DNA from: Escherichia coli
Lineage (GTDB): Bacteria > Pseudomonadota > Gammaproteobacteria > Enterobacterales > Enterobacteriaceae
DNA length: 64,000 bases
Assembly: GCF_013122565.1 (NCBI RefSeq)
Contig: NZ_CP053258.1
Direction: 5' to 3' (one strand)
Made by a program: the position numbers and the translations under genes. Below the pieces are notes generated by a model. The model was not told the DNA's origin. It saw only the letters and a list, made by a program, of their open reading frames with translations, and did not search any database. Shown piece after piece: positions 21,509 to 45,303 of this stretch (position 1 is the first letter of the stretch; every line of letters begins with the position of its first letter).

Positions 21509-22435
21509 ATGGAACTTCGCCAGTTACGTTATTTTGTCCGTATTGTGGAAACCGGCAGTATGGGCAGCGCGGCGCTTGATCTCGACATCGGTGTCTCAGC
21601 GCTCAGTCAACAGATGACAAGGCTGGAAAATGAACTCGCCATTCGTCTGTTGCAACGAACCTCGCGTGGCGTAACGCCAACTAACTCGGGTCTGGCCTTT
21701 TACTCACAGGCACAGCTGGCGTTGCGTCATGCTGATGATGCCATTCTTGCTGCGCGCGATGCACGTCTGTCAGGACACGTCAGCGTCGGTATGGCCCCCA
21801 GTACAGCCTCCGTCCTGGGGGTGCCGTTTATTCATGCCATGCGGGCACATTACGCCGACGTTCGCCTGCATGTGGTGGAAAGCCTGTCAGGTAATCTGGA
21901 ACGGATGATCAACACCCGTCAGATTGATCTGGCCGTTGTTTTTCGGAAAGAAAAGCACCTGCGCTGGAGCGCCAGGCCAGTTCTCGAAGAGCAGCTTTTT
22001 CTGATTGGCACACATGATCTGCTGACGGATATTCCGGATGACACCATAACCCCTGCTCAACTGACGAATATTCCCCTGATCATGCCAAGCTCAGGCCACG
22101 GCTTGCGCGGCCTACTGGAGGCTATTTGTCAGGAACACGGGCTGAAGGTTGATATCGCCACGGAAATTGATGGCCTGACGTTACTGATGCGCGCCGTTGG
22201 CAGCGGACTCGGTGCAACATTACAACCCGGAGCAGCCATTTCGCATCTTGAGGGTGAAGCATTAAGAGTGATCGGCATCCATAATCCCATACTCAGCCGC
22301 CCCAATTTTCTGGTCAGCCTATCGGACGATGAACTCCCGCCCGCCGCTCTTGCAGCCCGCGTGATACTTACAAAAGTCATGCGTAAACTTGTTGAAATCG
22401 GCCATTGGCCGGGCGCAACCATTTACGCTCCCTAA
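21509..22435 (+). CDS. tcuR: LysR-family regulator, TcuR-like
   Basis: 308-aa ORF with a LysR HTH (MELRQLRYFVRIVETGSMGSAALDL...) immediately upstream of tcuABC. Confidence 0.8.
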   Translation: MELRQLRYFVRIVETGSMGSAALDLDIGVSALSQQMTRLENELAIRLLQRTSRGVTPTNSGLAFYSQAQLALRHADDAILAARDARLSGHVSVGMAPSTASVLGVPFIHAMRAHYADVRLHVVESLSGNLERMINTRQIDLAVVFRKEKHLRWSARPVLEEQLFLIGTHDLLTDIPDDTITPAQLTNIPLIMPSSGHGLRGLLEAICQEHGLKVDIATEIDGLTLLMRAVGSGLGATLQPGAAISHLEGEALRVIGIHNPILSRPNFLVSLSDDELPPAALAARVILTKVMRKLVEIGHWPGATIYAP

Positions 22436-22532
22436 ACCCCCCTTTAGTTATTCGTTATAGCGCTTACACAACACACGAACATACACTTCATTTACAAATT
22501 TAACAGATGGTTAAAAGGTAGTGGAGTAGACG

Positions 22533-23936
22533 ATGGTTGATGTACTGGTGATTGGCGGTGGTAATGCCGCGCTATGCGCCGCCTTAACCGCTCGTGAGGC
22601 AGGAGCTTCCGTGCTGCTGTTAGAGGCTGCGCCTAGGGAATGGCGCGGCGGGAATTCCCAACACACGCGCAATTTACGCTGTATGCACGATGCACCACAG
22701 GATGTGCTGGTCGAGAGTTATCCCGAAGAGGAATTCTGGCAGGATCTCTGGCGTGTCACCGAAGGCAATACCAATGAAGCGTTGGCGCGCTTGGTGATTC
22801 GAACCTCTTCCCAGTGTCGTGACTGGATGCGTCAGCATGGGGTTAATTTTCAGCCTCCGCTTTCCGGCGCGCTGCATGTGGCGCGCACCAATGCCTTCTT
22901 CATGGGCGGTGGTAAAGCCCTCGTGAACGCCTATTACCGCAGTGCAGAAAAGCTGGGGGTACAGATTCGCTACAGCACGCCGGTACAGGCGCTTGAATTG
23001 CACAACGGCAAATTCGTCGCAGCCCTGGCAGGTCACGAACGCATTGAGGCGAAAGCCTGCGTACTCGCCGCCGGCGGGTTTGAATCCAACCGCGAATGGC
23101 TACGCGACGCCTGGGGAGAGAACGCACGTGGCGAATGGCCAGCCGATAATTTCCTCATTCGCGGCACCCGCTTTAATCAGGGCGTCTTGCTCAAATTTAT
23201 GATCAATGCCGGGGCAGACATTATCGGTGATCCGTCTCAGTCCCATTGTGTGGCGATTGATGCACGGGCACCGTTGTACGACGGCGGCATTTGTACCCGC
23301 GTGGATTGTGTCTCACTGGGTGTGGTAGTCAACCGGGATGCAGAACGCTTTTACGATGAAGGGGAAGATTTTTGGCCGAAACGCTATGCCATCTGGGGAC
23401 GTCTGGTTGCCCACCAACCGGGGCAGATTGGCTACTCCATTATCGACAGCAAAGCGATCGGCCACTTTATGCCGCCAGTTTTCCCCGGCGCACAGGCCAA
23501 TACGCTAAGAGATCTGGCCCGCCAGTTGGGGCTGGATCCCGAACACTTTACCCACACCGTGGAACACTTCAATCAGGCCTGTCAGCTGGGTCAGTTTGAT
23601 CACACGAAGCTGGACAACTGCGCGACGCAGGGCCTGATTCCACCGAAAACCCACTGGGCGCGGCCTATTGATACGCCCCCCTACTACGGTTATGCCCTGC
23701 GACCAGGAATCACCTTTACCTATCTCGGGCTGAAAGTAAATGAACACGCTGCGGTTCATTTCGCAGGCACCCCCAGCCCTAACCTGTTCGTTGCCGGTGA
23801 AATGATGGCAGGCAATGTACTGGGTAAGGGCTATACCGCCGGGGTCGGGATGTCCATTGGCACCACGTTTGGTCGCATCGCTGGTAAAGAAGCCGCTCAG
23901 GCAGCACGCAAGGAGACGCATCATGAAGCAGCTTGA
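22533..23936 (+). CDS. tcuA: Tricarballylate dehydrogenase TcuA (FAD-dependent)
   Basis: 467-aa ORF with an N-terminal FAD-binding motif ([17 protein letters not shown]); followed by tcuB and tcuC. Confidence 0.85.
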
Positions 23937-25062
23937 AAAGTTGATTATCGAGGCCAAAATTCTCACCGAACCAGAGGCTGAAGTCGAGCGGGTGATGCAT
24001 GTGTGTAACGCATGTCGCTATTGCGAAGGATTTTGCGCCGTGTTCCCGGCAATGACTCAACGACTGGAATTTGGCAAAGCCGACATTAACTATCTGGCAA
24101 ATCTGTGCCATAACTGCGGCGCTTGCCTACACGCCTGCCAGTATGCTCCCCCCCATGAGTTTGGGATCAACGTGCCGAAAGCAATGGCAGAGGTACGTCT
24201 GGAAACTTATCAACAGTACGCGCAACCGGCGGTCTTCGGGGCGCTGTATCGCCGGGCTGGCGTCACCGTGACGCTGGCACTGGTCTTAAGTATGTTCCTC
24301 TTTTTACTCCTGGCGATGGGGCTGAAGGGATCGCTGCTCCACCCACCGCTGGCCGGTGATTTCTACCAAATCTTCCCGCACAACCTGCTGGCCTGGATGT
24401 TTGGATCGGTATTCATTCTGGCTATTGGTTTACTGATGGTAGGGGTGATCCGCTTCTGGCGCGAGATTTCTCCCGTCGGGCCGCGCCCAGCGGAAATTGC
24501 CGAAGCGTCGAGCAACGCGCTAACGCTAAAATATCTTGACGGCGGACATGGCAAAGGGTGCAACGAAGCGGACGATGCTTTCACATTGATGCGTCGTCGT
24601 TTCCACCATTTCACCTTCTACGGCTTTATGCTCTGTTTCGCCGCGACCATGGTGGCGACGGGTTACCACTACTTTGCTAGTTGGGAAGCCCCCTACCCAT
24701 TCTTCAGTGTGCCGGTCATGCTTGGCACGTTAGGAGGAGTCGGTTTAATCGTAGGCCCGGCAGGCCTGCTGTGGTTAAACCTTAAGCGCTCGCCACTGCA
24801 TGGCGATGCGCGACAGAAACCGATGGATCGGGGATTTATTTTACTACTGCTCCTGACCAGCCTCACCGGTTTAGGTTTGCTGGTGGGAAGAGATACCTCA
24901 TGGATGGGGATCCTGCTTGCCATCCATCTTGGCGTGGTCATGGCGCTTTTTTTAACAATTCCGTACGGAAAATTTGCCCACGGATTTTACCGCTGCGCGT
25001 CTTTACTCAAATGGGCGATCGAGAAGCGACGTGGAAAACAGGCGGGGGTCGCAAGCGACTGA
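23923..25062 (+). CDS. tcuB: Tricarballylate utilisation protein TcuB (membrane Fe-S protein)
   Basis: 379 aa from ATG 23923 ([12 protein letters not shown]...), which overlaps the tcuA stop. Two Cys clusters ([22 protein letters not shown]) plus hydrophobic segments. Confidence 0.82.
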
Positions 25063-25116
25063 CCCGCACACTCTTACCTCTATACATAATTATGATAAGG
25101 CAATGGAGCAACCTCA

Positions 25117-26412
25117 ATGACTCAACAACCATCGCGTACCGGCACGTTCGGCGCAATACTCCGTGTTACCAGCGGTAATTTTCTCGAACAGTTCGATTTT
25201 TTCCTGTTTGGTTTTTACGCTACTTATATCGCAAAGACGTTTTTTCCTGCCGAAAGTGAGTTTGCCGCATTAATGCTTACTTTTGCCGTTTTTGGCTCCG
25301 GCTTTTTAATGCGCCCTATCGGGGCCGTGGTATTGGGTGCATATATCGACAGAATTGGGCGACGGAAAGGGCTGATGGTTACCCTGGCGATTATGGGCTG
25401 CGGCACGATGCTCATCGCCCTCGTTCCGGGTTATCAGACTATCGGCCTGCTGGCCCCTGTACTGGTCCTGGTGGGGCGTCTGCTACAGGGATTTTCTGCT
25501 GGAGTCGAACTGGGCGGCGTCTCTGTTTATCTTTCTGAGATCGCCACACCAGGCAATAAAGGCTTTTATACCAGTTGGCAATCGGCCAGCCAGCAGGTGG
25601 CGATTGTGGTCGCCGCGCTGATCGGGTACGGTCTGAATGCCACGCTGGGACACGATGAAATCTCCGAATGGGGTTGGCGAATACCGTTCTTCATTGGCTG
25701 CATGATTATTCCGCTGATTTTTGTTCTGCGACGTTCGCTTCAGGAAACTGAAACCTTTTTACAGCGTAAACACCGTCCGGACACCCGGGAAATTTTTACC
25801 ACCATTGCTAAAAACTGGCGTATTATCACTGCGGGAACCCTGCTGGTGGCGATGACGACCACGACATTTTATTTTATTACCGTCTATACCCCCACTTACG
25901 GGAGAACGGTGTTGAACCTGAGCGCACGTGATAGTCTGATCGTCACTATGCTGGTAGGGATTTCTAACTTTATATGGCTGCCGATTGGCGGCGCGATCTC
26001 TGACCGGATTGGGCGTCTCCCGGTGCTAATGGGCATCACCTTACTCGCCATCGTCACCACCTGGCCGGTGATGCACTGGCTTACCGCTGCACCTGACGTC
26101 ACCCGCATGACACTGGTGCTGCTCTGGTTCTCGTTCTTTTTTGGGATGTATAACGGTGCAATGGTAGCAGCCCTGACAGAAGTGATGCCGGTTTATGTCC
26201 GAACCGTGGGTTTTTCGCTGGCCTTTAGTCTCGCCACGGCGATTTTCGGCGGCCTGACACCAGCCATCTCCACTGCATTGGTCCAGTTGACAGGCGATAA
26301 AAGTTCTCCTGGATGGTGGCTAATGTGCGCTGCGCTGTGCGGGCTCGCCGCGACGACAATACTGTTTGCTCGTCTCAGTAGTGGTTATCAGACAGTAAAA
26401 AATAAGCTCTGA
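25117..26412 (+). CDS. tcuC: Tricarballylate/citrate MFS transporter TcuC
   Basis: 431-aa MFS-type ORF downstream of tcuAB. Confidence 0.82.
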
Positions 26413-26418
26413 AACGCA

Positions 26419-26450
26419 AGCAGGCAGAGATATATGTCTGCCTGCTTTCT
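26419..26450 (+). terminator. Terminator-like hairpin after tcuC
   Basis: AGCAGGCAGA / TCTGCCTGCT 10-bp stem, 8-nt loop, followed by TTCT. Confidence 0.5.
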
Positions 26451-26639
26451 CCAGTGCGCCGTAAACCGTGGGCAGCGTGGCACGGGAGTTACGTCACCGG
26501 GCTCTATGCCAACAGTTCAGTGAGTTCGCCGGCGCATCGATGGCTGGTTATGCCAGCAATGTTCAGAGGGAAGAATATTCGTGTGATCATAGCTTGCTTA
26601 TTCCTTGCCTGGGTTAAATTTTCAGACGGCTCAATCCAT

Positions 26640-26892
26640 AAAACCGGTGACTGGGATTAACGTAAGTACGCCCTCTTTCCATCAACACTTCAGGCAGCTT
26701 GCGGGAATGAGTCCACTCCGGTATCAGAAATGACTATGCCTCAGAAGACAGGCGACTAACGATGTCACCACAGCAGCCTATACTGTCGGTTACGAAAGCT
26801 TATCCCATTTCAGTCGGGAATATTCGCGGATGTTTGGAGAGTCACCTAAGAGAGATATTGCCAGATTAAGAAAGTCTGTCGATCAGCTTTAA
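26640..26892 (+). pseudogene. yneL: Decayed AraC-family regulator remnant (yneL-like)
   Basis: Translation gives ...[77 protein letters not shown]. Both AraC-type HTH signatures are present, but an in-frame TGA interrupts them and the inter-helix spacing is shortened. No intact N-terminal domain. Confidence 0.55.
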
Positions 26893-27325
26893 TAAACCCT
26901 GCATTTATCTGGTTAGAGCAATTTGGCGTTAGTTTCAGCAAGCAAACATTAACCATAGCTAATGATTTTTAGCTATATAAACCATTAGTAACTCTTGACC
27001 TTTCCTGACACTTCCCTTGTTCGCAATAATATTCTGTTTAGTCGCTGTTTATAAATAACATGCATAATGAAATCGTCATGTTATTTAGCGACATAAAATG
27101 TCTTTGCAAATACTCTCTTCAATAAGTGCAGCAATAAACTTGTTGTGGATAGGTGTCCTTGTGATTTAAAGATATTATCGTTCTTCGTGAAATGTAATAA
27201 CCCTGGAAACTATATTCTCAGGGCAACAGCCAATCAAGAATGATTCTTGTTTTATAAGCAATAACAGAATGACTTAATTGTTAACTCTCTTTATTCAGCT
27301 ACTTAAATGTAAATTTTGGAGAATT

Positions 27326-27889
27326 ATGAAACTCAAACATGTCGGTATGATTGTCGTTTCTGTGTTGGCGATGTCGTCTGCTGCGGTAAGTGCAGCCGAG
27401 GGTGATGAATCAGTAACGACCACTGTTAATGGCGGTGTTATTCATTTTAAAGGTGAAGTGGTAAATGCCGCTTGTGCGATTGATTCAGAATCAATGAACC
27501 AAACGGTTGAACTGGGGCAGGTCCGTTCTTCTCGCCTGGCTAAAGCGGGTGACCTCAGCTCCGCCGTTGGCTTCAATATCAAGCTGAATGATTGTGATAC
27601 CAATGTTTCCAGTAATGCAGCTGTTGCATTCCTGGGTACTACTGTCACCAGTAATGACGATACGTTAGCGCTGCAGAGTTCAGCGGCAGGCTCTGCCCAA
27701 AATGTCGGTATCCAAATTTTGGACCGTACGGGGGAGGTATTAATACTTGATGGTGCCACTTTTAGCGCTAAAACTGACTTGATTGATGGCACGAATATAC
27801 TGCCGTTCCAGGCTCGTTATATTGCTCTCGGGCAGTCAGTAGCTGGTACTGCAAACGCAGATGCGACCTTCAAAGTTCAATATCTATAA
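27326..27889 (+). CDS. fmlA: F9 (Fml) fimbrial major subunit, FimA-like
   Basis: 187 aa from ATG 27326 with RBS GGAG at 27318-27321; signal peptide and pilin-like C-terminus. First gene of a chaperone-usher operon. Confidence 0.8.
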
Positions 27890-27930
27890 TTCTATCTTAA
27901 GGTGGCTATACGTCATCTGAAAATGAAACA

Positions 27931-27959
27931 GGGTGTGTGTGGCATGGCTACGCACACCC
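27931..27959 (+). other. Imperfect hairpin (GGGTGTG...CACACCC) in the intergenic region after the major-subunit gene
   Basis: Read directly. Its position resembles the intra-operon attenuating stem-loops of fimbrial operons; that role is inference. Confidence 0.3.
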
Positions 27960-28240
27960 GAGCAATTCACCAATGTGAATCTCATTATTAATGAGGAGTG
28001 GTTTGTATTTGGAGCGGTATGAAAAAATCACATAATATCTAAACGATTAATAAACAACAGTAGTTGAACTTACTGTTATTTAAAATATTTACTTAGTAGC
28101 AAGGTTTTCCTATTAAAAGAGAACCAACATTTGTTACAAACGCATTAAGTCTGGAAACCCGGCGACTCGCAATGTATTAGCAACATTTACCGATTGTCTG
28201 ATGTAACGGTTTCCCCGCTTATCCTCTTAACACATGGAGA

Positions 28241-28960
28241 ATGCATCAGATGCAAACTACGCGTACCCCCTACTCTGTTTCCGTTATGGCGACAGTGTTA
28301 CTTTTATTGCTCTTTGCTTGCCATAGCACCGTTGCCAACGCAGCTGTCGCACTTGGTGCGACGCGGGTAATTTATCCGGCAAACCAGAAACAGGTTTTAT
28401 TGCCTGTCACGAATAATGATCCTGCCAGTGTCTATCTCATTCAGTCATGGATAGAAAATGCGGGTGACCAAAAAGACACCCAGTTTGTCATTACCCCACC
28501 ACTTTTTTCCATGCAAGGTAAAAAAGAGAATACGCTGCGGATAATCAACGCCACTAATCATCAGTTACCAGACGACCGTGAAAGCCTGTTCTGGGTTAAT
28601 GTCAAAGCTATTCCTGCTATGGAAAAAGACCAGAAGAATGAGAATACATTACAGCTGGCAATTATTAGCCGCATAAAAATGTTTTATCGCCCCACGAACC
28701 TGGCAATGGCACCTGAAGAAGCGCCTGCAATGCTTCGGTTTCGCCGCAGCGGTAGCAAACTCACTCTTATAAATCCAACGCCCTACTTCATTACCGTAAC
28801 AAATATGAAAGCAGGAAATAGCAATCTCCCAAACACCATGGTGCCGCCAAAAGGTGAAGTATCGGTGGATATCCCGCATGCTGCAACCGGGGATATCAGT
28901 TTTCAAACGATCAATGATTACGGTGCATTAACTCCGCGTATTAAGGCAACCATGCAGTAA
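28241..28960 (+). CDS. Fimbrial periplasmic chaperone (FimC/PapD-like)
   Basis: 239-aa ORF with signal peptide and chaperone-like sequence (…RVIYPANQKQVLLPVTNNDPASVYLIQSWIEN...). Confidence 0.85.
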   Translation: MHQMQTTRTPYSVSVMATVLLLLLFACHSTVANAAVALGATRVIYPANQKQVLLPVTNNDPASVYLIQSWIENAGDQKDTQFVITPPLFSMQGKKENTLRIINATNHQLPDDRESLFWVNVKAIPAMEKDQKNENTLQLAIISRIKMFYRPTNLAMAPEEAPAMLRFRRSGSKLTLINPTPYFITVTNMKAGNSNLPNTMVPPKGEVSVDIPHAATGDISFQTINDYGALTPRIKATMQ

Positions 28961-29001
28961 GCCAGTAACCTAATTAATAATAAACTCAATCGGAATTAAT
29001 A

Positions 29002-31653
29002 ATGACAGCCTTTCGTGCCGCATTTAAGGCATATCGTATGCATCAGGTGTTACTACTGCCTCGCTTTGCACGGCTTACCATTGCCCTTGGCTTAGCAACT
29101 GCGGTATTTCCCGTTGACGCAGAGTATTATTTTAATCCACGGTTTTTAAGCAATGATCTTGCTGAATCTGTCGATTTATCCGCCTTTACTAAGGGACGCG
29201 AGGCACCACCTGGTACATATCGGGTCGACATTTATTTGAACGACGAATTTATGACCAGTCGGGATATTACTTTTATTACAGATGATAATAACGCAGCTCT
29301 CATCCCATGCCTGAGTACAGACCTTCTTGTCAGTCTTGGTATAAAAAAATCAGCGTTATTAGACAATAAGGGACATTCGGCAGAAAAACATGTGCCGGAC
29401 AACAGCGCATGCACACCACTTCAGGATCGTTTGGCTGACGCATCATCTGAGTTTGATGTTGGTCAGCAACATCTGTCACTCTCCGTTCCGCAAATTTATG
29501 TTGGCAGAATGGCTCGCGGCTATGTTTCTCCTGATCTGTGGGAAGAAGGAATAAATGCTGGGCTACTAAACTATAGTTTTAATGGTAATTCTATTAACAA
29601 TCGTAGTAACCATAATGCAGGAAAATCCAACTATGCATATTTGAATTTACAGAGTGGCATTAACATTGGTAGTTGGCGACTGCGCGATAACTCAACGTGG
29701 AGTTATAACAGTGGGAGTAGCAATTCATCTGACAGCAATAAATGGCAGCATATCAATACGTCGGCTGAACGTGACATTATTCCCTTACGCTCACGGTTAA
29801 CGGTGGGTGATAGTTATACCGATGGCGATATTTTTGATAGTGTGAACTTTCGTGGCCTCAAAATAAATTCAACAGAAGCAATGTTGCCCGATAGCCAACA
29901 TGGTTTCGCTCCGGTGATTCATGGTATTGCCCGTGGCACCGCACAAGTGAGTGTAAAACAGAACGGATACGATGTTTATCAGACTACTGTCCCACCCGGC
30001 CCTTTTACTATTGATGATATCAACTCTGCGGCCAATGGTGGTGATCTGCAAGTAACCATAAAAGAGGCAGACGGCAGTATTCAGACATTATATGTTCCTT
30101 ATTCGTCTGTTCCGGTTCTCCAACGTGCTGGATATACGCGTTATGCGCTTGCCATGGGGGAATATCGTAGTGGAAATGACCTGCAAAGCTCCCCCAAGTT
30201 CATACAAGGTAGCTTGATGCATGGACTGGAAGGAAACTGGACACCTTATGGCGGAATGCAAATTGCAGAAGATTATCAGGCCTTAAACCTTGGTATTGGT
30301 AAAGATTTAGGACTTTTTGGTGCCTTTTCTTTCGATATCACGCAGGCCAATACGACACTTGCAGATGGCACCCGTCACAGCGGGCAATCGGTTAAATCCG
30401 TCTACAGCAAATCCTTCTACCAGACGGGAACCAATATCCAGGTCGCAGGATATCGCTATTCTACGCAAGGTTTTTATAACTTATCCGACAGTGCCTACAG
30501 TCGAATGAGTGGTTACACCGTCAAGCCTCCTACCGGAGACAGCAATGAGCAGACACAATTTATTGATTATTTTAATCTGTTCTACAGTAAGCGTGGTCAG
30601 GAACAAATAAGCATCTCTCAGCAGCTTGGAAATTACGGTACGACATTTTTCAGTGCCAGTCGCCAAAGTTACTGGAACACGTCACGCAGCGACCAGCAAA
30701 TATCATTTGGGTTAAATGTGCCGTTTGGTGATATTACAACCTCGCTGAATTACAGCTATTCCAATAATATATGGCAAAACGATCGAGATCATTTACTCGC
30801 TTTTACGCTTAATATTCCCTTCAGTCATTGGATGCGTACAGACAGTCAGTCGGCATTTCGTAATTCAAACGCCAGTTACAGTATGTCAAACGATTTGAAA
30901 GGCGGCATGACCAATCTATCGGGGGTTTATGGCACTCTGCTGCCGGATAATAACCTGAATTATAGCGTTCAGGTCGGTAACACCCACGGGGGTAATACAT
31001 CGTCTGGCACCAGTGGTTACAGTTCTCTTAATTATCGTGGAGCTTACGGTAATACTAATGTCGGTTACAGTCGGAGTGGCGAAAGCAGCCAGATTTATTA
31101 TGGAATGAGTGGTGGCATTATTGCTCATGCTGATGGCATCACCTTTGGACAGCCGCTGGGCGACACAATGGTTCTGGTTAAGGCTCCTGGCGCTGATAAT
31201 GTCAAAATAGAGAACCAGACCGGAATTCATACTGACTGGCGTGGCTATGCCATATTACCATTTGCGACAGAATATAGAGAAAATCGTGTCGCTCTTAACG
31301 CGAATTCCCTGGCAGATAATGTTGAACTGGATGAAACCGTGGTCACTGTCATCCCAACTCACGGTGCTATTGCCAGAGCAACATTTAATGCACAAATCGG
31401 CGGGAAAGTATTAATGACGTTGAAGTACGGTAATAAGAGCGTTCCATTCGGTGCAATTGTCACTCACGGAGAGAATAAAAACGGCAGCATTGTCGCGGAA
31501 AACGGTCAGGTTTATCTGACTGGACTTCCACAGTCAGGGAAATTACAGGTTTCATGGGGCAAAGATAAAAACTCAAACTGTATTGTCGAGTACAAGCTTC
31601 CTGAAGTTTCTCCTGGTACCTTACTGAACCAGCAGACAGCAATCTGTCGCTAA
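29002..31653 (+). CDS. ydeT: Fimbrial outer-membrane usher (FimD-like), full length
   Basis: 883-aa ORF. In K-12, ydeT is only a C-terminal fragment; here it is intact. Confidence 0.85.
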   Translation: MTAFRAAFKAYRMHQVLLLPRFARLTIALGLATAVFPVDAEYYFNPRFLSNDLAESVDLSAFTKGREAPPGTYRVDIYLNDEFMTSRDITFITDDNNAALIPCLSTDLLVSLGIKKSALLDNKGHSAEKHVPDNSACTPLQDRLADASSEFDVGQQHLSLSVPQIYVGRMARGYVSPDLWEEGINAGLLNYSFNGNSINNRSNHNAGKSNYAYLNLQSGINIGSWRLRDNSTWSYNSGSSNSSDSNKWQHINTSAERDIIPLRSRLTVGDSYTDGDIFDSVNFRGLKINSTEAMLPDSQHGFAPVIHGIARGTAQVSVKQNGYDVYQTTVPPGPFTIDDINSAANGGDLQVTIKEADGSIQTLYVPYSSVPVLQRAGYTRYALAMGEYRSGNDLQSSPKFIQGSLMHGLEGNWTPYGGMQIAEDYQALNLGIGKDLGLFGAFSFDITQANTTLADGTRHSGQSVKSVYSKSFYQTGTNIQVAGYRYSTQGFYNLSDSAYSRMSGYTVKPPTGDSNEQTQFIDYFNLFYSKRGQEQISISQQLGNYGTTFFSASRQSYWNTSRSDQQISFGLNVPFGDITTSLNYSYSNNIWQNDRDHLLAFTLNIPFSHWMRTDSQSAFRNSNASYSMSNDLKGGMTNLSGVYGTLLPDNNLNYSVQVGNTHGGNTSSGTSGYSSLNYRGAYGNTNVGYSRSGESSQIYYGMSGGIIAHADGITFGQPLGDTMVLVKAPGADNVKIENQTGIHTDWRGYAILPFATEYRENRVALNANSLADNVELDETVVTVIPTHGAIARATFNAQIGGKVLMTLKYGNKSVPFGAIVTHGENKNGSIVAENGQVYLTGLPQSGKLQVSWGKDKNSNCIVEYKLPEVSPGTLLNQQTAICR

Positions 31654-31666
31654 GGAACAATAGATT

Positions 31667-32197
31667 ATGAAATACAATAACATTATTTTCCTCGGTTTAT
31701 GTCTGGGGTTAACCACCTATTCTGCTTTATCCGCAGATAGCGTTATTAAAATTAGCGGGCGCGTCCTCGATTATGGCTGCACAGTCTCATCGGATTCGCT
31801 TAATTTTACCGTAGATCTCCAAAAAAACAGTGCCAGACAATTTCCAACGACCGGTAGCACAAGTCCAGCCGTCCCTTTTCAGATTACGTTAAGTGAATGC
31901 AGCAAAGGGACAACGGGAGTTCGGGTTGCATTTAACGGTATTGAGGATGCAGAAAATAATACTCTGTTGAAACTGGATGAAGGGAGCAATACGGCCTCCG
32001 GTTTGGGTATAGAAATACTGGACGGAAATATGCGTCCGGTGAAATTGAATGACCTTCATGCCGGGATGCAGTGGATCCCACTGGTACCAGAACAGAACAA
32101 TGTTTTGCCTTACTCCGCTCGTTTGAAGTCAACTCAGAAGTCCGTCAATCCGGGACTGGTGAGCGCTTCGGCAACATTTACCCTTGAATTTCAATGA
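31667..32197 (+). CDS. ydeS: Fimbrial minor subunit YdeS
   Basis: 176-aa pilin-like ORF with signal peptide. Confidence 0.85.
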   Translation: MKYNNIIFLGLCLGLTTYSALSADSVIKISGRVLDYGCTVSSDSLNFTVDLQKNSARQFPTTGSTSPAVPFQITLSECSKGTTGVRVAFNGIEDAENNTLLKLDEGSNTASGLGIEILDGNMRPVKLNDLHAGMQWIPLVPEQNNVLPYSARLKSTQKSVNPGLVSASATFTLEFQ

Positions 32198-32209
32198 TCA
32201 GAGTCAGAT

Positions 32210-32713
32210 ATGAAAAGACTTCACAAGAGGTTCCTGTTAGCTACGTTTTGCGCGTTATTCACAGCAACTCTCCAGGCCGCCGATGTCACTATCACTGTTA
32301 ATGGTCGGGTAGTCGCTAAACCCTGCACTATTCAAACCAAAGAAGCTAACGTTAATCTCGGGGATCTTTATACACGCAATCTGCAACAACCTGGTTCTGC
32401 ATCAGGCTGGCACAATATTACTTTGTCATTAACCGATTGTCCGGTTGAAACAAGTGCAGTGACGGCAATCGTGACAGGTTCAACTGACAATACGGGTTAT
32501 TACAAAAATGAAGGTACTGCCGAAAATATTCAGATAGAGCTAAGGGATGACCAGGATGCGACGTTAAAAAATGGCGATAGCAAAACGGTTATTGTTGATG
32601 AGATCACTCGTAATGCACAGTTTCCACTTAAGGCAAGAGCTATCACGGTGAATGGAAACGCAAGCCAGGGAACGATCGAGGCGCTAATCAATGTGATCTA
32701 CACTTGGCAATAA
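32210..32713 (+). CDS. ydeR: Fimbrial minor subunit YdeR
   Basis: 167-aa pilin-like ORF with signal peptide. Confidence 0.85.
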   Translation: MKRLHKRFLLATFCALFTATLQAADVTITVNGRVVAKPCTIQTKEANVNLGDLYTRNLQQPGSASGWHNITLSLTDCPVETSAVTAIVTGSTDNTGYYKNEGTAENIQIELRDDQDATLKNGDSKTVIVDEITRNAQFPLKARAITVNGNASQGTIEALINVIYTWQ

Positions 32714-32772
32714 CGTCGATTCGATTTTCTTAGCCTCCTTTTTAAATCAATTTTTTAACCTTAGGATATATC

Positions 32773-33687
32773 ATGGGTAAAACAATAAGTATGAAGGTTC
32801 TGTTCGGTATTTATCTTCTATTAATAGCAGGCAAAGTTTTTGCCTTCAGTTGTAATGTCGATGGCGGGTCAAGTATTGGAGCAGGTACAACCTCTGTTTA
32901 TGTTAATCTCGACCCTGTAATACAACCGGGCCAGAATCTGGTTGTAGACTTGTCTCAGCATATAAGTTGCTGGAATGATTACGGCGGCTGGTACGACACT
33001 GATCATATAAACCTGGTACAAGGCTCAGCTTTCGCAGGCTCCCTACAGTCATATAAAGGATCGCTGTACTGGAATAATGTGACCTACCCCTTCCCGTTGA
33101 CAACAAATACCAACGTATTGGATATTGGTGATAAGACACCGATGCCATTACCGTTAAAACTCTATATTACTCCAGTCGGGGCGGCCGGCGGAGTTGTCAT
33201 AAACGCGGGGGAAGTTATTGCCCGTATTCATATGTATAAAATTGCAACATTAGGAAGCGGAAATCCGCGTAATTTTACGTGGAATATTATTTCAAATAAC
33301 AGTGTTGTTATGCCAACAGGCGGCTGCACCGTTGATAGTCGTAATGTCAACGTGAATCTCCCGGACTTTCCTGGAAGCGCAGAAATACCCCTTGGCGTAT
33401 ATTGCTCAAGTGAACAAAAGCTCTCATTTTATCTTTCGGGTGCTACCACTGACAGTGCCAGACAAGTGTTTGCTAACACAGCACCAGATGCAACAAAAGC
33501 AGCGGGAGTGGGTGTCTCTCTGATGCGTAATGGAAAAATACTGGCTACGGGAGAAAATGTCTCCCTGGGGACAGTAAATAAAAGCAAAGTACCTCTGGGT
33601 TTAAGCGCAACCTATGGACAAACAGGAAACAAAGTTTCAGCCGGAACCGTCCAGTCAGTCATTGGTGTCACTTTTATCTATGAATAA
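32773..33687 (+). CDS. ydeQ: Fimbrial tip adhesin YdeQ (FimH/FmlH-like two-domain adhesin)
   Basis: 304-aa ORF, last gene of the operon; adhesin-like length and signal peptide. Confidence 0.85.
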
Positions 33688-33759
33688 TTGTGATTTTGAC
33701 CTTAGTCTATGCGCTCCATTCACGAAAATTGCGCGGATAATTATTTTGTGAAGGCTATT

Positions 33760-33777
33760 ATCCTACACCTGTAAGAA
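33760..33777. promoter_or_regulatory. EvgA-box-like inverted repeat (ATCCTACA-CC-TGTAAGAA) upstream of ydeP
   Basis: Matches the TTCYTACA-N2-TGTARGAA EvgA consensus; ydeP is a known direct EvgA target. Confidence 0.65.
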
Positions 33778-34020
33778 AATCCGCGCACAATTGAAGCCAG
33801 AGTCTTATTTTTTATATTGAAAAACATGTTAATTTAAACACTATGAGAGATGATGCTTAATTTATCGTGTTTAATCTTTTGTTTAACGATAATAGATTAA
33901 AAATAGAAAGAGAGTAGTCCCCTACTCTTATATATCCATGTTGACGATAATCCCTTTGTATATACTGTGCATCATCGCTATTACAAATCCTAATAATTCA
34001 TTTCCACACAGGATAAGCAG

Positions 34021-36300
34021 ATGAAGAAAAAAATTGAATCCTACCAGGGAGCTGCCGGTGGTTGGGGTGCTGTTAAATCCGTAGCGAATGCAGTACGTAA
34101 GCAGATGGATATACGCCAGGATGTTATTGCCATGTTTGACATGAATAAGCCAGAGGGCTTTGACTGTCCGGGTTGTGCATGGCCAGATCCTAAGCACAGT
34201 GCGTCATTCGACATTTGTGAAAACGGCGCAAAAGCAATCGCCTGGGAAGTCACGGATAAGCAGGTAAACGCCTCTTTCTTTGCTGAGAATACGGTTCAAT
34301 CATTACTTACCTGGGGAGACCACGAGCTTGAGGCTGCGGGGCGACTCACTCAGCCTTTGAAATATGATGCCGTCAGCGACTGTTACAAGCCATTAAGCTG
34401 GCAACAAGCTTTCGATGAAATTGGCGCACGCCTTCAAAGCTATAGTGATCCCAATCAGGTTGAATTCTATACTTCGGGCCGCACTTCCAATGAAGCTGCC
34501 TTTCTTTATCAGCTTTTTGCCCGTGAATACGGGAGCAATAACTTTCCCGACTGCTCCAACATGTGCCATGAACCGACCAGTGTGGGTTTGGCAGCGAGTA
34601 TCGGTGTGGGTAAAGGGACCGTGTTGCTGGAAGACTTTGAGAAATGCGATTTAGTCATTTGCATTGGGCATAACCCTGGTACAAACCACCCTCGCATGTT
34701 GACTTCGTTGCGCGCTTTAGTGAAACGGGGAGCGAAAATGATCGCCATCAATCCTCTACAGGAACGTGGTCTGGAGCGATTTACCGCACCGCAAAACCCG
34801 TTTGAAATGCTGACGAACTCTGAGACTCAGTTGGCCAGTGCCTACTATAACGTGCGCATTGGTGGCGATATGGCGTTGCTCAAGGGGATGATGCGCCTGT
34901 TAATTGAGCGCGATGATGCTGCAAGCGCCGCAGGTCGGCCCTCATTGCTGGATGACGAATTTATTCAAACGCATACCGTCGGCTTTGACGAGCTACGCCG
35001 TGACGTTCTCAATTCCGAGTGGAAAGATATCGAACGTATTTCTGGACTAAGTCAGACTCAAATCGCCGAACTGGCTGATGCATATGCCGCTGCCGAACGC
35101 ACCATTATCTGTTACGGAATGGGGATCACTCAGCACGAACATGGTACCCAGAATGTACAGCAACTGGTCAATCTGCTGTTGATGAAAGGTAACATTGGCA
35201 AGCCTGGTGCGGGTATCTGCCCACTACGAGGTCACTCTAATGTACAGGGCGACCGAACCGTCGGTATCACCGAGAAACCGTCTGCAGAGTTTCTGGCTCG
35301 CCTGGGTGAGCGCTATGGTTTCACCCCACCTCATGCACCTGGACATGCTGCAATTGCCAGCATGCAAGCGATATGTACGGGGCAGGCTCGAGCATTGATC
35401 TGCATGGGGGGCAACTTTGCACTGGCAATGCCAGATCGGGAAGCGAGCGCTGTACCGTTAACGCAATTAGATTTGGCGGTACACGTAGCCACTAAGCTTA
35501 ACCGCTCTCATCTGCTGACCGCACAGCATAGCTATATTCTGCCGGTTCTTGGGCGTAGCGAGATTGACATGCAAAAAAGCGGTGCGCAGGCGGTAACCGT
35601 TGAGGATTCAATGTCGATGATTCATGCCTCGCGTGGCGTGTTAAAACCCGCCGGTGTAATGCTGAAATCAGAGTGTGCAGTGGTCGCGGGTATCGCGCAG
35701 GCGGCACTACCCCAGAGCGTGGTAGCCTGGGAGTATCTGGTGGAAGATTATGATCGCATTCGCAATGACATTGAAGCTGTGCTGCCAGAGTTCGCCGACT
35801 ATAACCAGCGCATCCGACATCCTGGAGGTTTTCACCTGATAAACGCAGCTGCTGAAAGGCGCTGGATGACGTCGTCAGGTAAGGCTAATTTCATTACCAG
35901 TAAAGGGCTGTTAGAAGATCCCTCTTCAGCGTTTAACAGTAAGCTAGTCATGGCGACAGTACGCAGTCACGATCAGTACAACACGACGATTTATGGTATG
36001 GATGATCGCTATCGAGGGGTATTCGGTCAACGAGATGTGGTCTTTATGAGTGCTAAACAAGCTAAAATTTGCCGTGTAAAAAACGGCGAAAGAGTTAATC
36101 TTATTGCGCTTACGCCAGACGGTAAGCGAAGCTCACGCCGCATGGATAGATTAAAAGTGGTCATTTACCCTATGGCTGACCGCTCACTGGTGACCTATTT
36201 TCCAGAATCGAATCACATGCTAACACTTGATAACCACGATCCATTAAGTGGCATTCCAGGCTATAAAAGTATTCCGGTTGAATTAGAACCATCAAATTAA
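34021..36300 (+). CDS. ydeP: YdeP, molybdopterin oxidoreductase-family acid-resistance protein
   Basis: 759-aa ORF; sequence and length match K-12 YdeP. Confidence 0.93.
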
Positions 36301-36418
36301 TGCCTCTTCTCATTTCTTCTGCTGTCATCCGCACAGCAGAAGAATTCCTCATTGACTATTATCGCGCAATTTGCTCACATGGATTAAATTAAACCACATC
36401 CTATAAGATATAAACTTC

Positions 36419-36436
36419 TGCCTACAGCTGTAAGAA
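36419..36436. promoter_or_regulatory. EvgA-box-like element (TGCCTACA-GC-TGTAAGAA) upstream of safA-ydeO
   Basis: Shares an extended ~40-bp module with the ydeP upstream site (CCTACA-N-CTGTAAGAAA-N-TCCGC...TGAAG). Confidence 0.6.
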
Positions 36437-36547
36437 ACTCCGCTCAGTACTGAAGTGTCAGTCCTATTTCCTCTTTTCTCCAGCCTGTTATATTAAGCAT
36501 ACTGATTAACGATTTTTAACGTTATCCGCTAAATTAACATATTTGAA

Positions 36548-36745
36548 ATGCATGCGACCACAGTGAAAAACAAAATCACGCAACGAGACAACTATAAAGA
36601 GATCATGTCTGTAATTGTGGTTGTCTTATTACTGACTCTTACATTGATAGCCATTTTTTCGGCAATTGATCAGCTGGGTATTTCAGAAATGGGTCGCATT
36701 GCAAGAGATCTTACACATTTCATTATCAATAGTTTGCAAGACTGA
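36548..36745 (+). CDS. safA: SafA (B1500), small membrane connector between EvgS/EvgA and PhoQ/PhoP
   Basis: 65-aa ORF (MHATTVKNKITQRDNYKEIMSVIVVVLLLTLTLIAIF...) with a single transmembrane segment. Confidence 0.88.
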   Translation: MHATTVKNKITQRDNYKEIMSVIVVVLLLTLTLIAIFSAIDQLGISEMGRIARDLTHFIINSLQD

Positions 36746-36818
36746 AAATAAACAGCAAATTATAAATGTGAAATGTTTAAAAGGTATCGATAAAACTTTA
36801 TTGTTTTAAGGAGATAAA

Positions 36819-37580
36819 ATGTCGCTCGTTTGTTCTGTTATATTTATTCATCATGCCTTCAACGCTAACATTTTAGATAAAGATTACGCCTTCTCTGATG
36901 GCGAGATCCTGATGGTAGATAACGCTGTTCGTACGCATTTTGAACCTTATGAGCGGCATTTCAAAGAAATAGGATTTAATGAAAATACCATTAAAAAATA
37001 TCTACAATGCACTAACATCCAGACAGTGACGATGCCTGTTCCTGCGAAGTTTTTACGTGCTTCAAATGTACCGACTGGATTGCTTAATGAAATGATTGCT
37101 TATCTCAACTCGGAAGAACGCAATCATCATAACTTTTCAGAACTTTTGCTTTTTTCTTGCCTGTCTATTTTTGCCACATGCAAAGGTTTCATTACACTAT
37201 TAACTAACGGTGTGCTATCCGTTTCCGGGAAAGTGAGAAATATTGTCAACATGAAGCTGGCGCACCCATGGAAGCTGAAAGATATTTGTGACTGCCTGTA
37301 CATTAGTGAAAGCCTGTTGAAGAAAAAACTAAAGCAAGAGCAAACGACATTCTCACAGATTCTTTTAGATGCCAGAATGCAGCACGCAAAAAATTTGATA
37401 CGCGTAGAAGGTTCAGTCAATAAAATTGCCGAACAATGTGGTTATGCGAGTACATCTTATTTTATTTATGCGTTCCGCAAACATTTCGGCAACAGTCCAA
37501 AGAGAGTTTCTAAGGAGTACCGTTGTCAAAGGCACACGGGTAGGAATACGGGCAACACGATGAATGCTTTAGCTATTTGA
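36819..37580 (+). CDS. ydeO: YdeO, AraC-family acid-resistance regulator
   Basis: 253-aa ORF with C-terminal AraC HTH (...IAEQCGYASTSYFIYAFRKHFGNSPKR...). Confidence 0.92.
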   Translation: MSLVCSVIFIHHAFNANILDKDYAFSDGEILMVDNAVRTHFEPYERHFKEIGFNENTIKKYLQCTNIQTVTMPVPAKFLRASNVPTGLLNEMIAYLNSEERNHHNFSELLLFSCLSIFATCKGFITLLTNGVLSVSGKVRNIVNMKLAHPWKLKDICDCLYISESLLKKKLKQEQTTFSQILLDARMQHAKNLIRVEGSVNKIAEQCGYASTSYFIYAFRKHFGNSPKRVSKEYRCQRHTGRNTGNTMNALAI

Positions 37581-37628
37581 TTATTTGCTAACGAGTAGTC
37601 AACCACACACGCTGCGTAAGAATTAAAT

Positions 37629-37660
37629 GGGGCAGCCATTCCCTGCCCCGCGTTGTTTTT
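37629..37660 (+). terminator. Rho-independent terminator after ydeO
   Basis: GGGGCAG / CTGCCCC stem followed by GCGTTGTTTTT. Confidence 0.6.
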
Positions 37661-37981
37661 AGGTGATATATTTCTTGAAATAAATAAGTGACAGCCATCA
37701 CATATTTATGCATTTGCATAACCCGTTGCATGATTATTTATGATCTCAATTCGGTATTTTGTCAGTAAAATCCAATAATTTATTAAATATCAATAGATTA
37801 GTTGTTTATCAACGAGAAATTACTTAGTAGAACAGAAAGTAATGTCAACAGTTTATGGACTGTTATTTCTCTTTTTTTAGCTAAATCTGCTATCTCTTTA
37901 TGTGACTAACTTCACTTACATCCACTTATTTCTCTTCATAAAATTACTTTGGAATTAAGTACAATAAGAAGAGGAACATTT

Positions 37982-39664
37982 ATGAAGTCTGCATTAAAGA
38001 AAAGTGTCGTAAGTACCTCGATATCTTTGATACTGGCATCTGGTATGGCTGCATTTGCTGCTCATGCGGCAGATGATGTAAAGCTGAAAGCAACCAAAAC
38101 AAACGTTGCTTTCTCAGACTTTACGCCGACTGAATACAGTACCAAAGGAAAGCCAAATATTATCGTACTGACCATGGATGATCTTGGTTATGGACAACTT
38201 CCTTTTGATAAGGGATCTTTTGACCCAAAAACAATGGAAAATCGTGAAATTGTCGATACCTACAAAATAGGGATAGATAAAGCCATTGAAGCTGCGCAAA
38301 AATCAACGCCGACGCTCCTGTCATTAATGGATGAAGGCGTACGTTTTACTAACGGCTATGTGGCGCACGGTGTTTCCGGCCCCTCCCGCGCCGCAATAAT
38401 GACCGGTCGAGCGCCCGCCCGCTTTGGGGTCTATTCCAATACCGATGCTCAGGATGGTATTCCGCTAACAGAAACTTTCTTGCCTGAATTATTCCAGAAT
38501 CATGGTTATTACACTGCAGCAGTAGGTAAATGGCACTTGTCAAAAATCAGTAATGTGCCGGTACCGGAAGATAAACAAACACGTGACTATCATGACAACT
38601 TCACCACATTTTCTGCGGAAGAATGGCAACCTCAAAACCGTGGCTTTGATTACTTTATGGGATTCCACGCTGCAGGAACGGCATATTACAACTCCCCTTC
38701 ACTGTTCAAAAATCGTGAACGTGTCCCCGCAAAAGGTTATATCAGCGATCAGTTAACCGATGAGGCAATTGGCGTTGTTGATCGTGCCAAAACACTTGAC
38801 CAGCCTTTTATGCTTTACCTGGCTTATAATGCTCCGCACCTGCCAAATGATAATCCTGCACCGGAGCAATATCAGAAGCAATTTAATACCGGTAGTCAAA
38901 CAGCGGATAACTACTACGCTTCCGTTTATTCTGTTGATCAGGGTGTAAAACGCATTCTCGAACAACTGAAGAAAAACGGACAGTATGACAATACAATTAT
39001 TCTCTTTACCTCCGATAATGGTGCGGTTATCGATGGTCCTCTGCCGCTGAACGGGGCGCAAAAAGGCTATAAGAGTCAGACCTATCCTGGCGGTACTCAC
39101 ACCCCAATGTTTATGTGGTGGAAAGGAAAACTTCAACCCGGTAATTATGACAAACTGATTTCCGCAATGGATTTCTACCCGACAGCTCTCGATGCAGCCG
39201 ATATCAGCATTCCAAAAGACCTTAAGCTGGATGGCGTTTCCTTGCTGCCCTGGTTGCAAGATAAGAAACAAGGCGAGCCACATAAAAATCTGACCTGGAT
39301 AACCTCTTATTCTCACTGGTTTGACGAGGAAAATATTCCATTCTGGGATAATTACCACAAATTTGTCCGCCATCAGTCAGACGATTACCCGCATAACCCC
39401 AACACCGAGGACTTAAGCCAATTCTCTTATACGGTGAGAAATAACGATTATTCGCTTGTCTATACAGTAGAAAACAATCAGTTAGGTCTATACAAACTGA
39501 CGGATCTACAGCAAAAAGATAACATTGCCGCCGCCAATCCGCAGGTCGTTAAAGAGATGCAAGGCGTGGTAAGAGAGTTTATCGATAGCAGCCAGCCACC
39601 GCTTAGCGAGGTAAATCAGGAGAAGTTTAACAATATCAAGAAAGCACTAAGCGAAGCGAAATAA
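37982..39664 (+). CDS. ydeN: YdeN, putative sulfatase
   Basis: 560 aa from ATG 37982 (MKSALKK...); signal peptide and sulfatase-family sequence. Confidence 0.9.
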   Translation: MKSALKKSVVSTSISLILASGMAAFAAHAADDVKLKATKTNVAFSDFTPTEYSTKGKPNIIVLTMDDLGYGQLPFDKGSFDPKTMENREIVDTYKIGIDKAIEAAQKSTPTLLSLMDEGVRFTNGYVAHGVSGPSRAAIMTGRAPARFGVYSNTDAQDGIPLTETFLPELFQNHGYYTAAVGKWHLSKISNVPVPEDKQTRDYHDNFTTFSAEEWQPQNRGFDYFMGFHAAGTAYYNSPSLFKNRERVPAKGYISDQLTDEAIGVVDRAKTLDQPFMLYLAYNAPHLPNDNPAPEQYQKQFNTGSQTADNYYASVYSVDQGVKRILEQLKKNGQYDNTIILFTSDNGAVIDGPLPLNGAQKGYKSQTYPGGTHTPMFMWWKGKLQPGNYDKLISAMDFYPTALDAADISIPKDLKLDGVSLLPWLQDKKQGEPHKNLTWITSYSHWFDEENIPFWDNYHKFVRHQSDDYPHNPNTEDLSQFSYTVRNNDYSLVYTVENNQLGLYKLTDLQQKDNIAAANPQVVKEMQGVVREFIDSSQPPLSEVNQEKFNNIKKALSEAK

Positions 39665-39715
39665 CTAAACCTTCATGCGGCGGATTTTTCCGCCGCCTTA
39701 TTGAGCGAGATAGCG

Positions 39716-40873: not shown

Positions 40874-40926
40874 TAACGCTCTCTTTTAGCTCCATTCTTA
40901 GCCTCCTTCTTATGACCTTAACAAGG

Positions 40927-40957
40927 CACCCGACATAAATTCCTGTCGGGTGTTTCG
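40927..40957 (+). terminator. Rho-independent terminator after ydeM
   Basis: CACCCGACA / TGTCGGGTG 9-bp stem followed by TTTCG. Confidence 0.55.
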
Positions 40958-42849: not shown

Positions 42850-42886
42850 AAACAATAAAAGCCCTGCTGTACGGAGATATAAATAA

Positions 42887-45259: not shown

Positions 45260-45303
45260 TAGTTCGGATTTTACTTAACCGGGTAAATTCGCCCGGTTTT
45301 CGC

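Follow-up and report, generated by a model that had tools for sequence, protein, structure and literature searches.

Gene content of the operon

The stretch of DNA analysed here (the window; 64,000 nt of Escherichia coli, contig NZ_CP053258.1) carries on its plus strand a run of six fimbrial genes that sits directly upstream of ydeP-safA-ydeO, as in all the strains that we compared. The genes and the pseudogene that precedes them are the following:

26701-26892, + strand: remnant of an AraC-type regulator (yneL-like pseudogene), with a C-terminal helix-turn-helix and an internal stop codon
27326-27889, + strand: major pilin (F9 major subunit, FmlA), 187 aa; Pfam Fimbrial, E 6e-31
28250-28960, + strand: PapD-like periplasmic chaperone, 236 aa; Pfam PapD_N and PapD_C
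29002-31653, + strand: outer-membrane usher, full length, 883 aa; Pfam PapC_N, Usher and PapC_C
31667-32197, + strand: FimF-like adaptor subunit (ydeS homologue), 176 aa; Pfam Fimbrial; NCBIfam FimF, 239 bits
32210-32713, + strand: FimG-like adaptor subunit (ydeR homologue), 167 aa; Pfam Fimbrial; NCBIfam FimG, 257 bits
32773-33687, + strand: tip adhesin FmlH (ydeQ homologue), 304 aa, with a lectin domain and a pilin domain

A first-pass annotation had described a complete six-gene operon on the plus strand at 27326-33687, and our analysis bears this out, since the six ORFs lie uninterrupted at those positions and their products carry whole Pfam domains. No internal stop codon was found in any of the six ORFs between 27326 and 33687. 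Each ORF is equal in length to its annotated orthologue in the complete E. coli genomes compared, and the gene lengths were the same in two other complete genomes. The usher is covered from end to end by PapC_N (1-146/146), Usher (1-549/549; E 6e-200) and PapC_C (1-66/66), and its alignment with the FimD structures spans their residues 2-833. The ORF of the chaperone opens at 28241 with an in-frame ATG that represents an alternative start; the protein can be aligned from end to end with the structures of SfaE and FimC (E about 1e-89) and keeps the two motifs used to anchor the subunits, GATRVIYP and WVNVKAIP, with their conserved Arg and Lys. The Pfam Fimbrial domain scored above its cut-off in three proteins of the operon. 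The adhesin combines a complete lectin domain (Pfam FimH_man-bind, 1-145/145; E 1e-77) with a C-terminal domain that aligns to the pilin domain of FimH. From these predicted products, which include a chaperone, an usher, pilin and a two-domain adhesin, the operon is classified as a chaperone-usher pilus system of the FimD-like, type-1-related group.

The pilin is 100% identical in amino acid sequence to RefSeq WP_001296758.1, which is present in other strains, and the exact proteins of the operon are already in NCBI as E. coli entries (QJU24234-QJU24238 / WP_171459379-81). At the 5' side, the AraC-type remnant aligns with 91% identity to the yneL region of K-12, and RefSeq labels it in other strains as a partial helix-turn-helix pseudogene. 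At the 3' side, a promoter/terminator scan found no canonical intrinsic terminator on the plus strand after the adhesin gene.

The operon corresponds to the F9 operon of CFT073

[quoted passage not shown] The F9 operon of the uropathogenic strain CFT073 (c1931-c1936; Wurpel et al. 2014, PMC3966885) is like that of the window in gene set, gene order and gene lengths, is also followed by ydeP, and has an identical promoter, transcription start site and hairpin 3' of the pilin gene. When the two operons were aligned, as the first-pass annotation had proposed, all six genes matched with 0 gaps. The frameshifts in the usher or the chaperone that it had named as evidence against its reading are thus absent, both genes being among those with 0 gaps. 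Nucleotide identity to CFT073 was 96.4-98.4%, with about 40 amino acid substitutions in total, and amino acid identity across the six genes was 97.4-98.9% (pilin 98.4%, chaperone 97.9%, usher 97.6%, FimF-like subunit 98.9%, FimG-like subunit 98.8%). Orthologues of the window operon are c1931-c1936 in CFT073 and fml in UTI89. The assignment to F9/Fml made in the first pass is therefore upheld by a colinear, indel-free match to the CFT073 operon, by the chromosomal position typical of F9, and by an adhesin that is FmlH. Taken together, we are highly confident that the window carries the chromosomal F9 (Fml) chaperone-usher operon of E. coli, intact and with the six genes of the ancestral form.

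The two strains differ in the upstream flank. In CFT073, an SDR oxidoreductase and a LysR remnant lie between hipA and the operon, whereas the window has about 15 kb with an AIDA-I/Aah module, a sugar-utilisation cluster and tcuRABC. This chromosomal AIDA-I/Aah adhesin module upstream of the F9 operon was the most notable of our side observations.

The adhesin is FmlH

The lectin domain of the adhesin is identical at 159 of its 160 residues to PDB 6AOW, "F9 pilus adhesin FmlH", the sole difference being K120N. The residues that form the galactoside pocket of FmlH have been listed by Kalas et al. 2018 (PMC5866590), and those that contact the ligand (F1, Y46, D53, K132, N140 and R142) are all kept in the window adhesin. 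K120N does not fall in any of the three binding loops (10-15, 44-53 and 132-142), and loops 1-3 are conserved. Pocket and loops are therefore the same as in the FmlH of uropathogenic E. coli (PDB 6AOW and related entries), from which the lectin domain of the window variant differs by K120N. F9 adhesins are specific for galactosides, in contrast with the mannose specificity of type 1 adhesins (PMC5866590).

Comparison with the type 1 operon

Type 1 fimbriae, encoded by fimAICDFGH, are paralogous to F9, and the two operons share their architecture, with a one-to-one gene order. Automatic annotation reflects this relationship: the pilin, the FimF-like and the FimG-like subunits pass the NCBIfam "equivalog" cut-offs for FimA, FimF and FimG, and RefSeq names the orthologues in other strains fimA, fimF and fimG. 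A reading of the window operon as the type 1 (fim) operon would account for those names, but it has practically no chance of being right. Identity to the K-12 Fim proteins amounts to only 45-67% (pilin 66.9%, chaperone 57%, usher 57%, FimF 44.8%, FimG 57.5%), the chaperone and the usher score below the NCBIfam cut-offs for FimC and FimD-type proteins, and the adhesin, 99% identical to FmlH in its lectin domain, is 47.8% identical to FimH of K-12. Moreover, the operon adjoins ydeP, away from the fim locus, and lacks fimB, fimE and fimI. We consider the fim reading refuted by these identities, by the position, by the missing fimB, fimE and fimI, and by the FmlH adhesin.

The absence of the fim-specific parts held up in directed searches. 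Upstream of the operon there is no recombinase ORF, the neighbours being a tcuC-like transporter gene and the AraC-type remnant, and a repeat search did not find fimS-like flanking repeats of the kind that would mark an invertible promoter. The pilin and chaperone genes are separated by 360 nt, a gap with 1-nt indels between strains; when it was compared with FimI and FimA, the best E value was 0.86, so that no decayed fimI was recognised. Accordingly, F9 differs from type 1 in having neither the fimB/fimE recombinases nor an invertible promoter nor fimI, and in its control, which in F9 depends on H-NS and temperature (PMC3966885) and in type 1 on phase inversion.

K-12 carries a deleted version of the operon

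The first-pass annotation had stated that K-12 lacks the major-subunit and chaperone genes and has a fragment of the usher, and this was accurate: in MG1655 there are ydeQ, ydeR and ydeS, the usher is represented by a 382-aa fragment, ydeT, and neither a pilin nor a chaperone gene is present. Comparison with K-12 ydeQRST, the other alignment suggested in the first pass, showed that the three distal genes are shared and that K-12 has lost the genes for pilin and chaperone as well as the 5' part of the usher gene. The difference corresponds to one interval:

27150-30426, no strand: interval deleted in K-12 MG1655 as a single clean 3,277-bp deletion

The deletion took out both the pilin and the chaperone genes, along with 475 codons from the start of the usher gene. 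The blastn matches stop at window position 27149 and restart at 30427, and the two pieces adjoin in K-12. The sequence across the junction is ...GTTGTGGA|ACCAATATCC..., and GGA occurs at each edge. The K-12 remnant (ydeQ-ydeR-ydeS-ydeT) occupies the same locus, its distal genes are 97-99% identical in amino acid sequence to those of the window, and it has the same promoter and the same palindrome.

Promoter, leader and possible regulatory elements

Four features lie outside the coding sequences:

27039-27075, + strand: f9 promoter, an exact 37-nt match, once in the window
27052-27087, no strand: perfect 11-nt inverted repeat TAAATAACATG-N14-CATGTTATTTA, from the repeat search, bracketing the -10 box and the start site
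27075-27325, + strand: AT-rich 5' untranslated leader, 251 nt, the published H-NS binding region
27931-27959, + strand: hairpin in the 3' UTR of the pilin gene, with a 13-bp stem and a 3-nt loop, without a U-tract

The f9 promoter was mapped in CFT073 by 5'-RACE, with a start 251 nt before the ATG (PMC3966885). The promoter stretch is identical in the window, where the -35 element (TAGTCG, 27039-27044) and the -10 element (CATAAT, 27063-27068) are separated by an 18-nt spacer, and the start (G27075) lies at the same distance from the pilin ATG as mapped in CFT073 (27326 minus 27075, or 251). A consensus promoter/terminator scan gave counts at the level of shuffled sequences and missed this mapped promoter. 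H-NS bound the 251-bp leader fragment of CFT073 (PMC3966885); the leader of the window has about 11 differences from it and 0 indels, and as RNA (251 nt) it folded no better than shuffled sequences (z -1.33). The G+C content of the region is 40-44%, versus 50-57% in its flanks, which is in keeping with H-NS repression.

The hairpin begins 42 nt past the stop codon of the pilin gene. RNA folding of 27880-28000 gave -40.7 kcal/mol (z -4.87), a value that 0 of 200 shuffles equalled. Rfam models, scanned over 26400-34100 with E values of up to 1 allowed, gave only a chance-level hit to OxyS (22 bits against a cut-off of 75 bits). A hairpin directly after the pilin gene is common to type 1 and F9 operons, and at the equivalent position of the fim operon lies FimR2, a 35-nt sRNA processed by RNase E. 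The hairpin sequence is exactly the same in CFT073 and in L001, L002 and L005, the flanking intergenic DNA varying, with 1-nt indels, and the inverted repeat has the same sequence in each of the six other F9 loci that we examined, among them K-12; since the compared strains are only about 2-3% diverged, conservation has little power here. We infer that the hairpin is likely an mRNA-stabilising or attenuating element, and the inverted repeat is a possible operator. That the two might be undescribed regulatory parts, the hairpin as a 3'-UTR sRNA derived from F9 and the palindrome as the operator of a dimeric regulator acting beside H-NS, is a speculative idea, based on position and conservation, to which we give a low probability.

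Expression and assembly

In CFT073, F9 is repressed by H-NS at 37 °C and expressed at 20 °C, a temperature at which the pili have been seen by immunogold EM (PMC3966885). The window strain may likewise assemble F9 pili, as the first-pass annotation had supposed, because no structural gene is interrupted, the mapped promoter is preserved and the genes are under purifying selection (pooled dN/dS versus CFT073, 0.11).

An operon that looks intact could nevertheless be non-functional, either through a disabling substitution in the usher, the chaperone or the adhesin or through permanent silence. The lineage has indeed accumulated substitutions relative to CFT073 (usher, 21; chaperone, 5; adhesin, 8), and the published operon is silent in standard culture at 37 °C. 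Against this, dN/dS is 0.07-0.13 in every gene, which indicates continued purifying selection, and the promoter does not differ from one with demonstrated activity. The motifs by which the chaperone anchors the subunits are also conserved, none of the adhesin substitutions falls at a known ligand-contact residue, and the lone change in the lectin domain lies away from the binding loops. We consider loss of function improbable on this evidence, and retain the reading of an operon that is probably capable of making pili.

Drawing on established knowledge of chaperone-usher systems and on the published work on F9, the following steps can be proposed. A sigma-70 promoter would drive transcription from G27075, which H-NS bound to the AT-rich leader would silence at 37 °C, with relief at about 20 °C. 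The subunits would be exported by Sec, and in the periplasm the PapD-like chaperone would cap each of them by donor-strand complementation. At the usher, donor-strand exchange would polymerise FmlH, the FimG-like subunit, the FimF-like subunit and then many major pilins. The lectin domain of FmlH at the tip would bind terminal beta-galactosides (Gal-beta1-3-GalNAc or GlcNAc; in EHEC, plant xyloglucan). The hairpin downstream of the pilin gene probably increases pilin output relative to the assembly proteins, through stabilisation or partial termination of the upstream transcript; this last step is our own proposal.

Distribution and significance

In a published survey, 60% of E. coli genomes had an intact operon (PMC3966885). 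With coverage as the criterion for the count, 3,550 of 5,426 complete genomes, or about two thirds, carried an uninterrupted match to 80% or more of the region. The best identity of the region to a complete genome was 97.8%, a value low enough for us to consider a source outside E. coli; we rejected this because the exact proteins are E. coli entries in NCBI and because a neighbouring core region reached 98.9%. Most E. coli have the F9 operon intact, and the deletion found in K-12 and phylogroup A is the exception; the strain is therefore not unusual, and an intact F9 operon here is already known and ordinary, with nothing new about it. We also searched the species-representative genomes with a degenerate FmlH-specific pattern, which returned no Escherichia record and whose single hit was a contig from a 'Candidatus Nanosynbacter' MAG. 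The contig is 98% identical to E. coli DNA, evidently a contamination of the bin, and the search carries no information on how F9 is distributed.

Beyond correct annotation, the finding has little consequence: the strain is genetically equipped for F9 pili. These pili have been linked to biofilm formation at low temperature, to colonisation of the calf gut by EHEC, to persistence in chronic urinary tract infection and to binding of plant cell walls. For annotation, the automatic naming of F9 genes as fimA, fimF and fimG can make a genome seem to carry two type 1 operons.

The operon is complete and belongs to the F9 (Fml) type

Six open reading frames, separated by short gaps, follow one another across 27326-33687 on the + strand of the window, and each of the six proteins matches the expected Pfam family with full model coverage:

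27326-27889, +, pilin, 187 aa; Pfam Fimbrial
28250-28960, +, chaperone (RefSeq-style start; the ORF opens at 28241); Pfam PapD_N and PapD_C
29002-31653, +, usher, 883 aa; Pfam PapC_N (1-146/146), Usher (1-549/549, E 6e-200) and PapC_C (1-66/66)
31667-32197, +, small subunit (FimF-like, ydeS); Pfam Fimbrial
32210-32713, +, small subunit (FimG-like, ydeR); Pfam Fimbrial
32773-33687, +, adhesin, 304 aa; Pfam FimH_man-bind (1-145/145)

The first-pass annotation, made from the sequence alone, had placed a six-gene operon at exactly these coordinates. The block is AT-rich, with a G+C of 40-45% vs 50-57% in the flanks. We compared it with four loci: the experimentally characterised F9 operon of the uropathogenic strain CFT073, those of two other complete E. 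coli genomes and the K-12 MG1655 locus. All six genes equal their annotated orthologues in length and the alignments hold no gaps; thus the frameshifts in usher or chaperone that were sought as a refutation of intactness are not there. Amino acid identity to CFT073 is, in gene order, 98.4, 97.9, 97.6, 98.9, 98.8 and 97.4%, and dN/dS (Nei-Gojobori) is 0.07-0.13 per gene and 0.11 pooled, at a dS of ~0.08, which indicates continued purifying selection on the genes after this lineage and that of CFT073 split. The chaperone aligned over its full length with the crystal structures of SfaE and FimC and retains the motifs GATRVIYP and WVNVKAIP, which bear the subunit-anchoring Arg and Lys, while the usher alignment covers FimD residues 2-833.

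The lectin domain of the adhesin shares 159 of 160 residues with the PDB protein 'F9 pilus adhesin FmlH' (6AOW and ten other entries), the sole difference from the 6AOW sequence being K120N. FmlH contacts galactose through F1, D53, K132 and N140, and the aglycone/GalNAc through Y46 and R142, with three binding loops at residues 10-15, 44-53 and 132-142 (PMC5866590); contact residues and loops are all unchanged here, K120N falling in none of the loops. As in all compared strains, ydeP-safA-ydeO follow directly downstream, the position described for F9 in PMC3966885. The adhesin, this position and the exact presence of the CFT073 promoter bear out the assignment to the Fml type; the observation of a complete operon is confirmed and its F9/Fml interpretation supported.

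Chaperone-usher subunits are exported via Sec, capped by the chaperone through donor-strand complementation and polymerised by the usher through donor-strand exchange, adhesin first. The F9 subunits would follow this route, from Sec export through chaperone capping to donor-strand exchange at the usher and, by orthology to Fim, in the order FmlH, FimG-like subunit, FimF-like subunit and pilin rod. Regulation may likewise follow that published for F9, with H-NS repression at 37 °C and pili at 20 °C: as reported in PMC3966885, H-NS binds a 251-bp f9 promoter/leader fragment and keeps the operon repressed at 37 °C, and the pili, visible at 20 °C, promote biofilm and recognise terminal Gal-beta1-3-GlcNAc. 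FmlH has been described as binding Gal-beta1-3-GalNAc and as having a role in chronic urinary tract infection (PMC5866590), and EHEC F9 as binding plant xyloglucan (PMC7766294).

Promoter and pilin 3' hairpin

The CFT073 f9 promoter was mapped by 5'-RACE, with a -35 box TAGTCG, an 18-nt spacer, a -10 box CATAAT and transcription starting at a G 251 nt upstream of the ATG (PMC3966885). This string is present exactly at 27039-27075, ending 251 nt before 27326, and identity to CFT073 is complete over the first 106 aligned nt around it. A repeat search revealed a perfect 11-nt inverted repeat, TAAATAACATG-N14-CATGTTATTTA (27052-27062 and 27077-27087), whose arms lie on either side of the mapped -10 box and start site. 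The other six F9 loci inspected, the K-12 remnant among them, carry it without change, and the consulted text of PMC3966885 does not describe it among the f9 features. The palindrome may be an operator, and we propose it as a candidate.

A hairpin with a 13-bp stem (27931-27959) lies 42 nt 3' of the pilin stop codon; the surrounding 121 nt (27880-28000) fold at -40.7 kcal/mol (z -4.87). Its sequence does not vary among the five operons compared, whereas substitutions and 1-nt indels occur elsewhere in the 360-nt gap. The hairpin has no U-tract. We infer a probable role in stabilising the transcript or in partial attenuation, which would bias output towards pilin relative to the assembly proteins, a bias typical of such operons. 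The hairpin also sits at the position of the K-12 FimR2 annotation (27890-27960 compared with 3665-3728 of the fim region used), FimR2 being a 35-nt sRNA that RNase E releases from the fimA 3' UTR (PMC9723502). In both UTRs ACGTCAT precedes a hairpin whose last bases are CACCC, but the F9 loop is AUG, without GGA, and CFT073 F9 has GCGTCAT in place of ACGTCAT.

The K-12 remnant

In MG1655 the locus comprises ydeQ, ydeR, ydeS and ydeT, a 382-aa usher fragment, beyond which lie the yneL pseudogene and hipAB. The match to the window ends at 27149 and resumes at 30427, two points that are adjacent in K-12, which indicates, from the alignment, that the K-12 state is a single 3,277-bp deletion. Lost are most of the leader, the pilin and chaperone genes and the first 475 usher codons, in agreement with the first-pass annotation, according to which K-12 lacks the major-subunit and chaperone genes and keeps only a piece of usher. 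The trinucleotide GGA stands at both edges, and the promoter and palindrome are retained.

Frequency and relatives

Some match to 26400-34020 is found in 5,395 of 5,426 complete E. coli genomes; taking at least 80% coverage in one place as the criterion for presence, the operon occurs in 3,550 (65%). This agrees with the frequencies in PMC3966885, where F9 was intact in 25/42 genomes (60%) and PCR for major subunit, usher and adhesin was positive for all three in 61% of the ECOR collection and 80% of isolates from urosepsis. An intact operon is therefore the majority state in E. coli, and that studied here is already known, publicly annotated and common. Its chaperone, usher and adhesin are exact NCBI E. 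coli proteins (QJU24234, QJU24235 and QJU24238; WP_171459379-81), run SRR11451224 has a Logan assembly with 100% identity over 12.3 kb, and the draft GCA_052983875.1 has the same layout at 99.4% over 16.9 kb. Since the closest complete RefSeq E. coli genomes reach only 97.8% over 26400-34020 and 98.9% over yddA-pqqL (41164-48099; the best include O55:H7 strains), the lineage is poorly represented among complete genomes, yet is E. coli. A 13,117-bp contig (JARKOR010000108.1) of a MAG labelled 'Candidatus Nanosynbacter sp.' matches 31809-44648 (ydeS to yddB) at 98.1% over 12.8 kb, which almost certainly means that E. coli DNA contaminates the bin.

Relation to fim

F9 and fim are paralogous (identities: pilin 67%, chaperone 57%, usher 57%, FimF 45%, FimG 58%, adhesin 48%), but F9 is without fimB, fimE and fimI, and the repeat search found no invertible-element repeats at the locus. 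The RefSeq names of the F9 genes differ between genomes, being fimA, fimF and fimG in some and ydeS and ydeR in others (compared over 27326-32713 and 4677-10066 of one complete-genome locus, L001). The misleading fim-type labels are explained by the NCBIfam 'equivalog' models, which accept F9 proteins (FimA 174 vs 140, FimF 239 vs 200, FimG 257 vs 220 bits), whereas chaperone (259 vs 327) and usher (985.5 vs 995) fall below their cut-offs and the adhesin matched no NCBIfam model; such labels are an annotation trap.

Neighbouring adhesins

The 5' flank of F9 is described as variable in PMC3966885. Here, ~15 kb (11790-26700) between hipA and the yneL remnant, missing from K-12, carry an AIDA-I/Aah pair, an MFS_2 sugar transporter, a GH5 glycosidase, a LacI-type regulator and tcuR-tcuA-tcuB with a tcuC-like MFS transporter (tricarballylate utilisation), an arrangement common to ETEC-like strains 0-4 and TW10590 at only 95% identity. 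The pair, assigned with NCBIfam, lies between hipA and the tcu genes:

12128-17127, -, AIDA-I/Aah module (genes 12148-15735 and 15750-16910)

It comprises a chromosomal AIDA-I-type autotransporter adhesin (1195 aa; 2438 bits vs a cut-off of 1200) and an Aah/TibC-type O-heptosyltransferase (602 bits). At least 80% of the module is present in only 29 of the 5,426 complete genomes, and the best 8 of these 29 matches (85-95.5% identity) are all on 50-165 kb plasmids, mostly from pigs or ETEC. An intact 1806-aa autotransporter (4457-9877, +; NCBIfam ECSE_1600 family, 4118 bits, model 1-1806 covered), whose K-12 counterpart yneO is an annotated pseudogene, brings the adhesin systems within 30 kb to three, with AIDA-I and F9.
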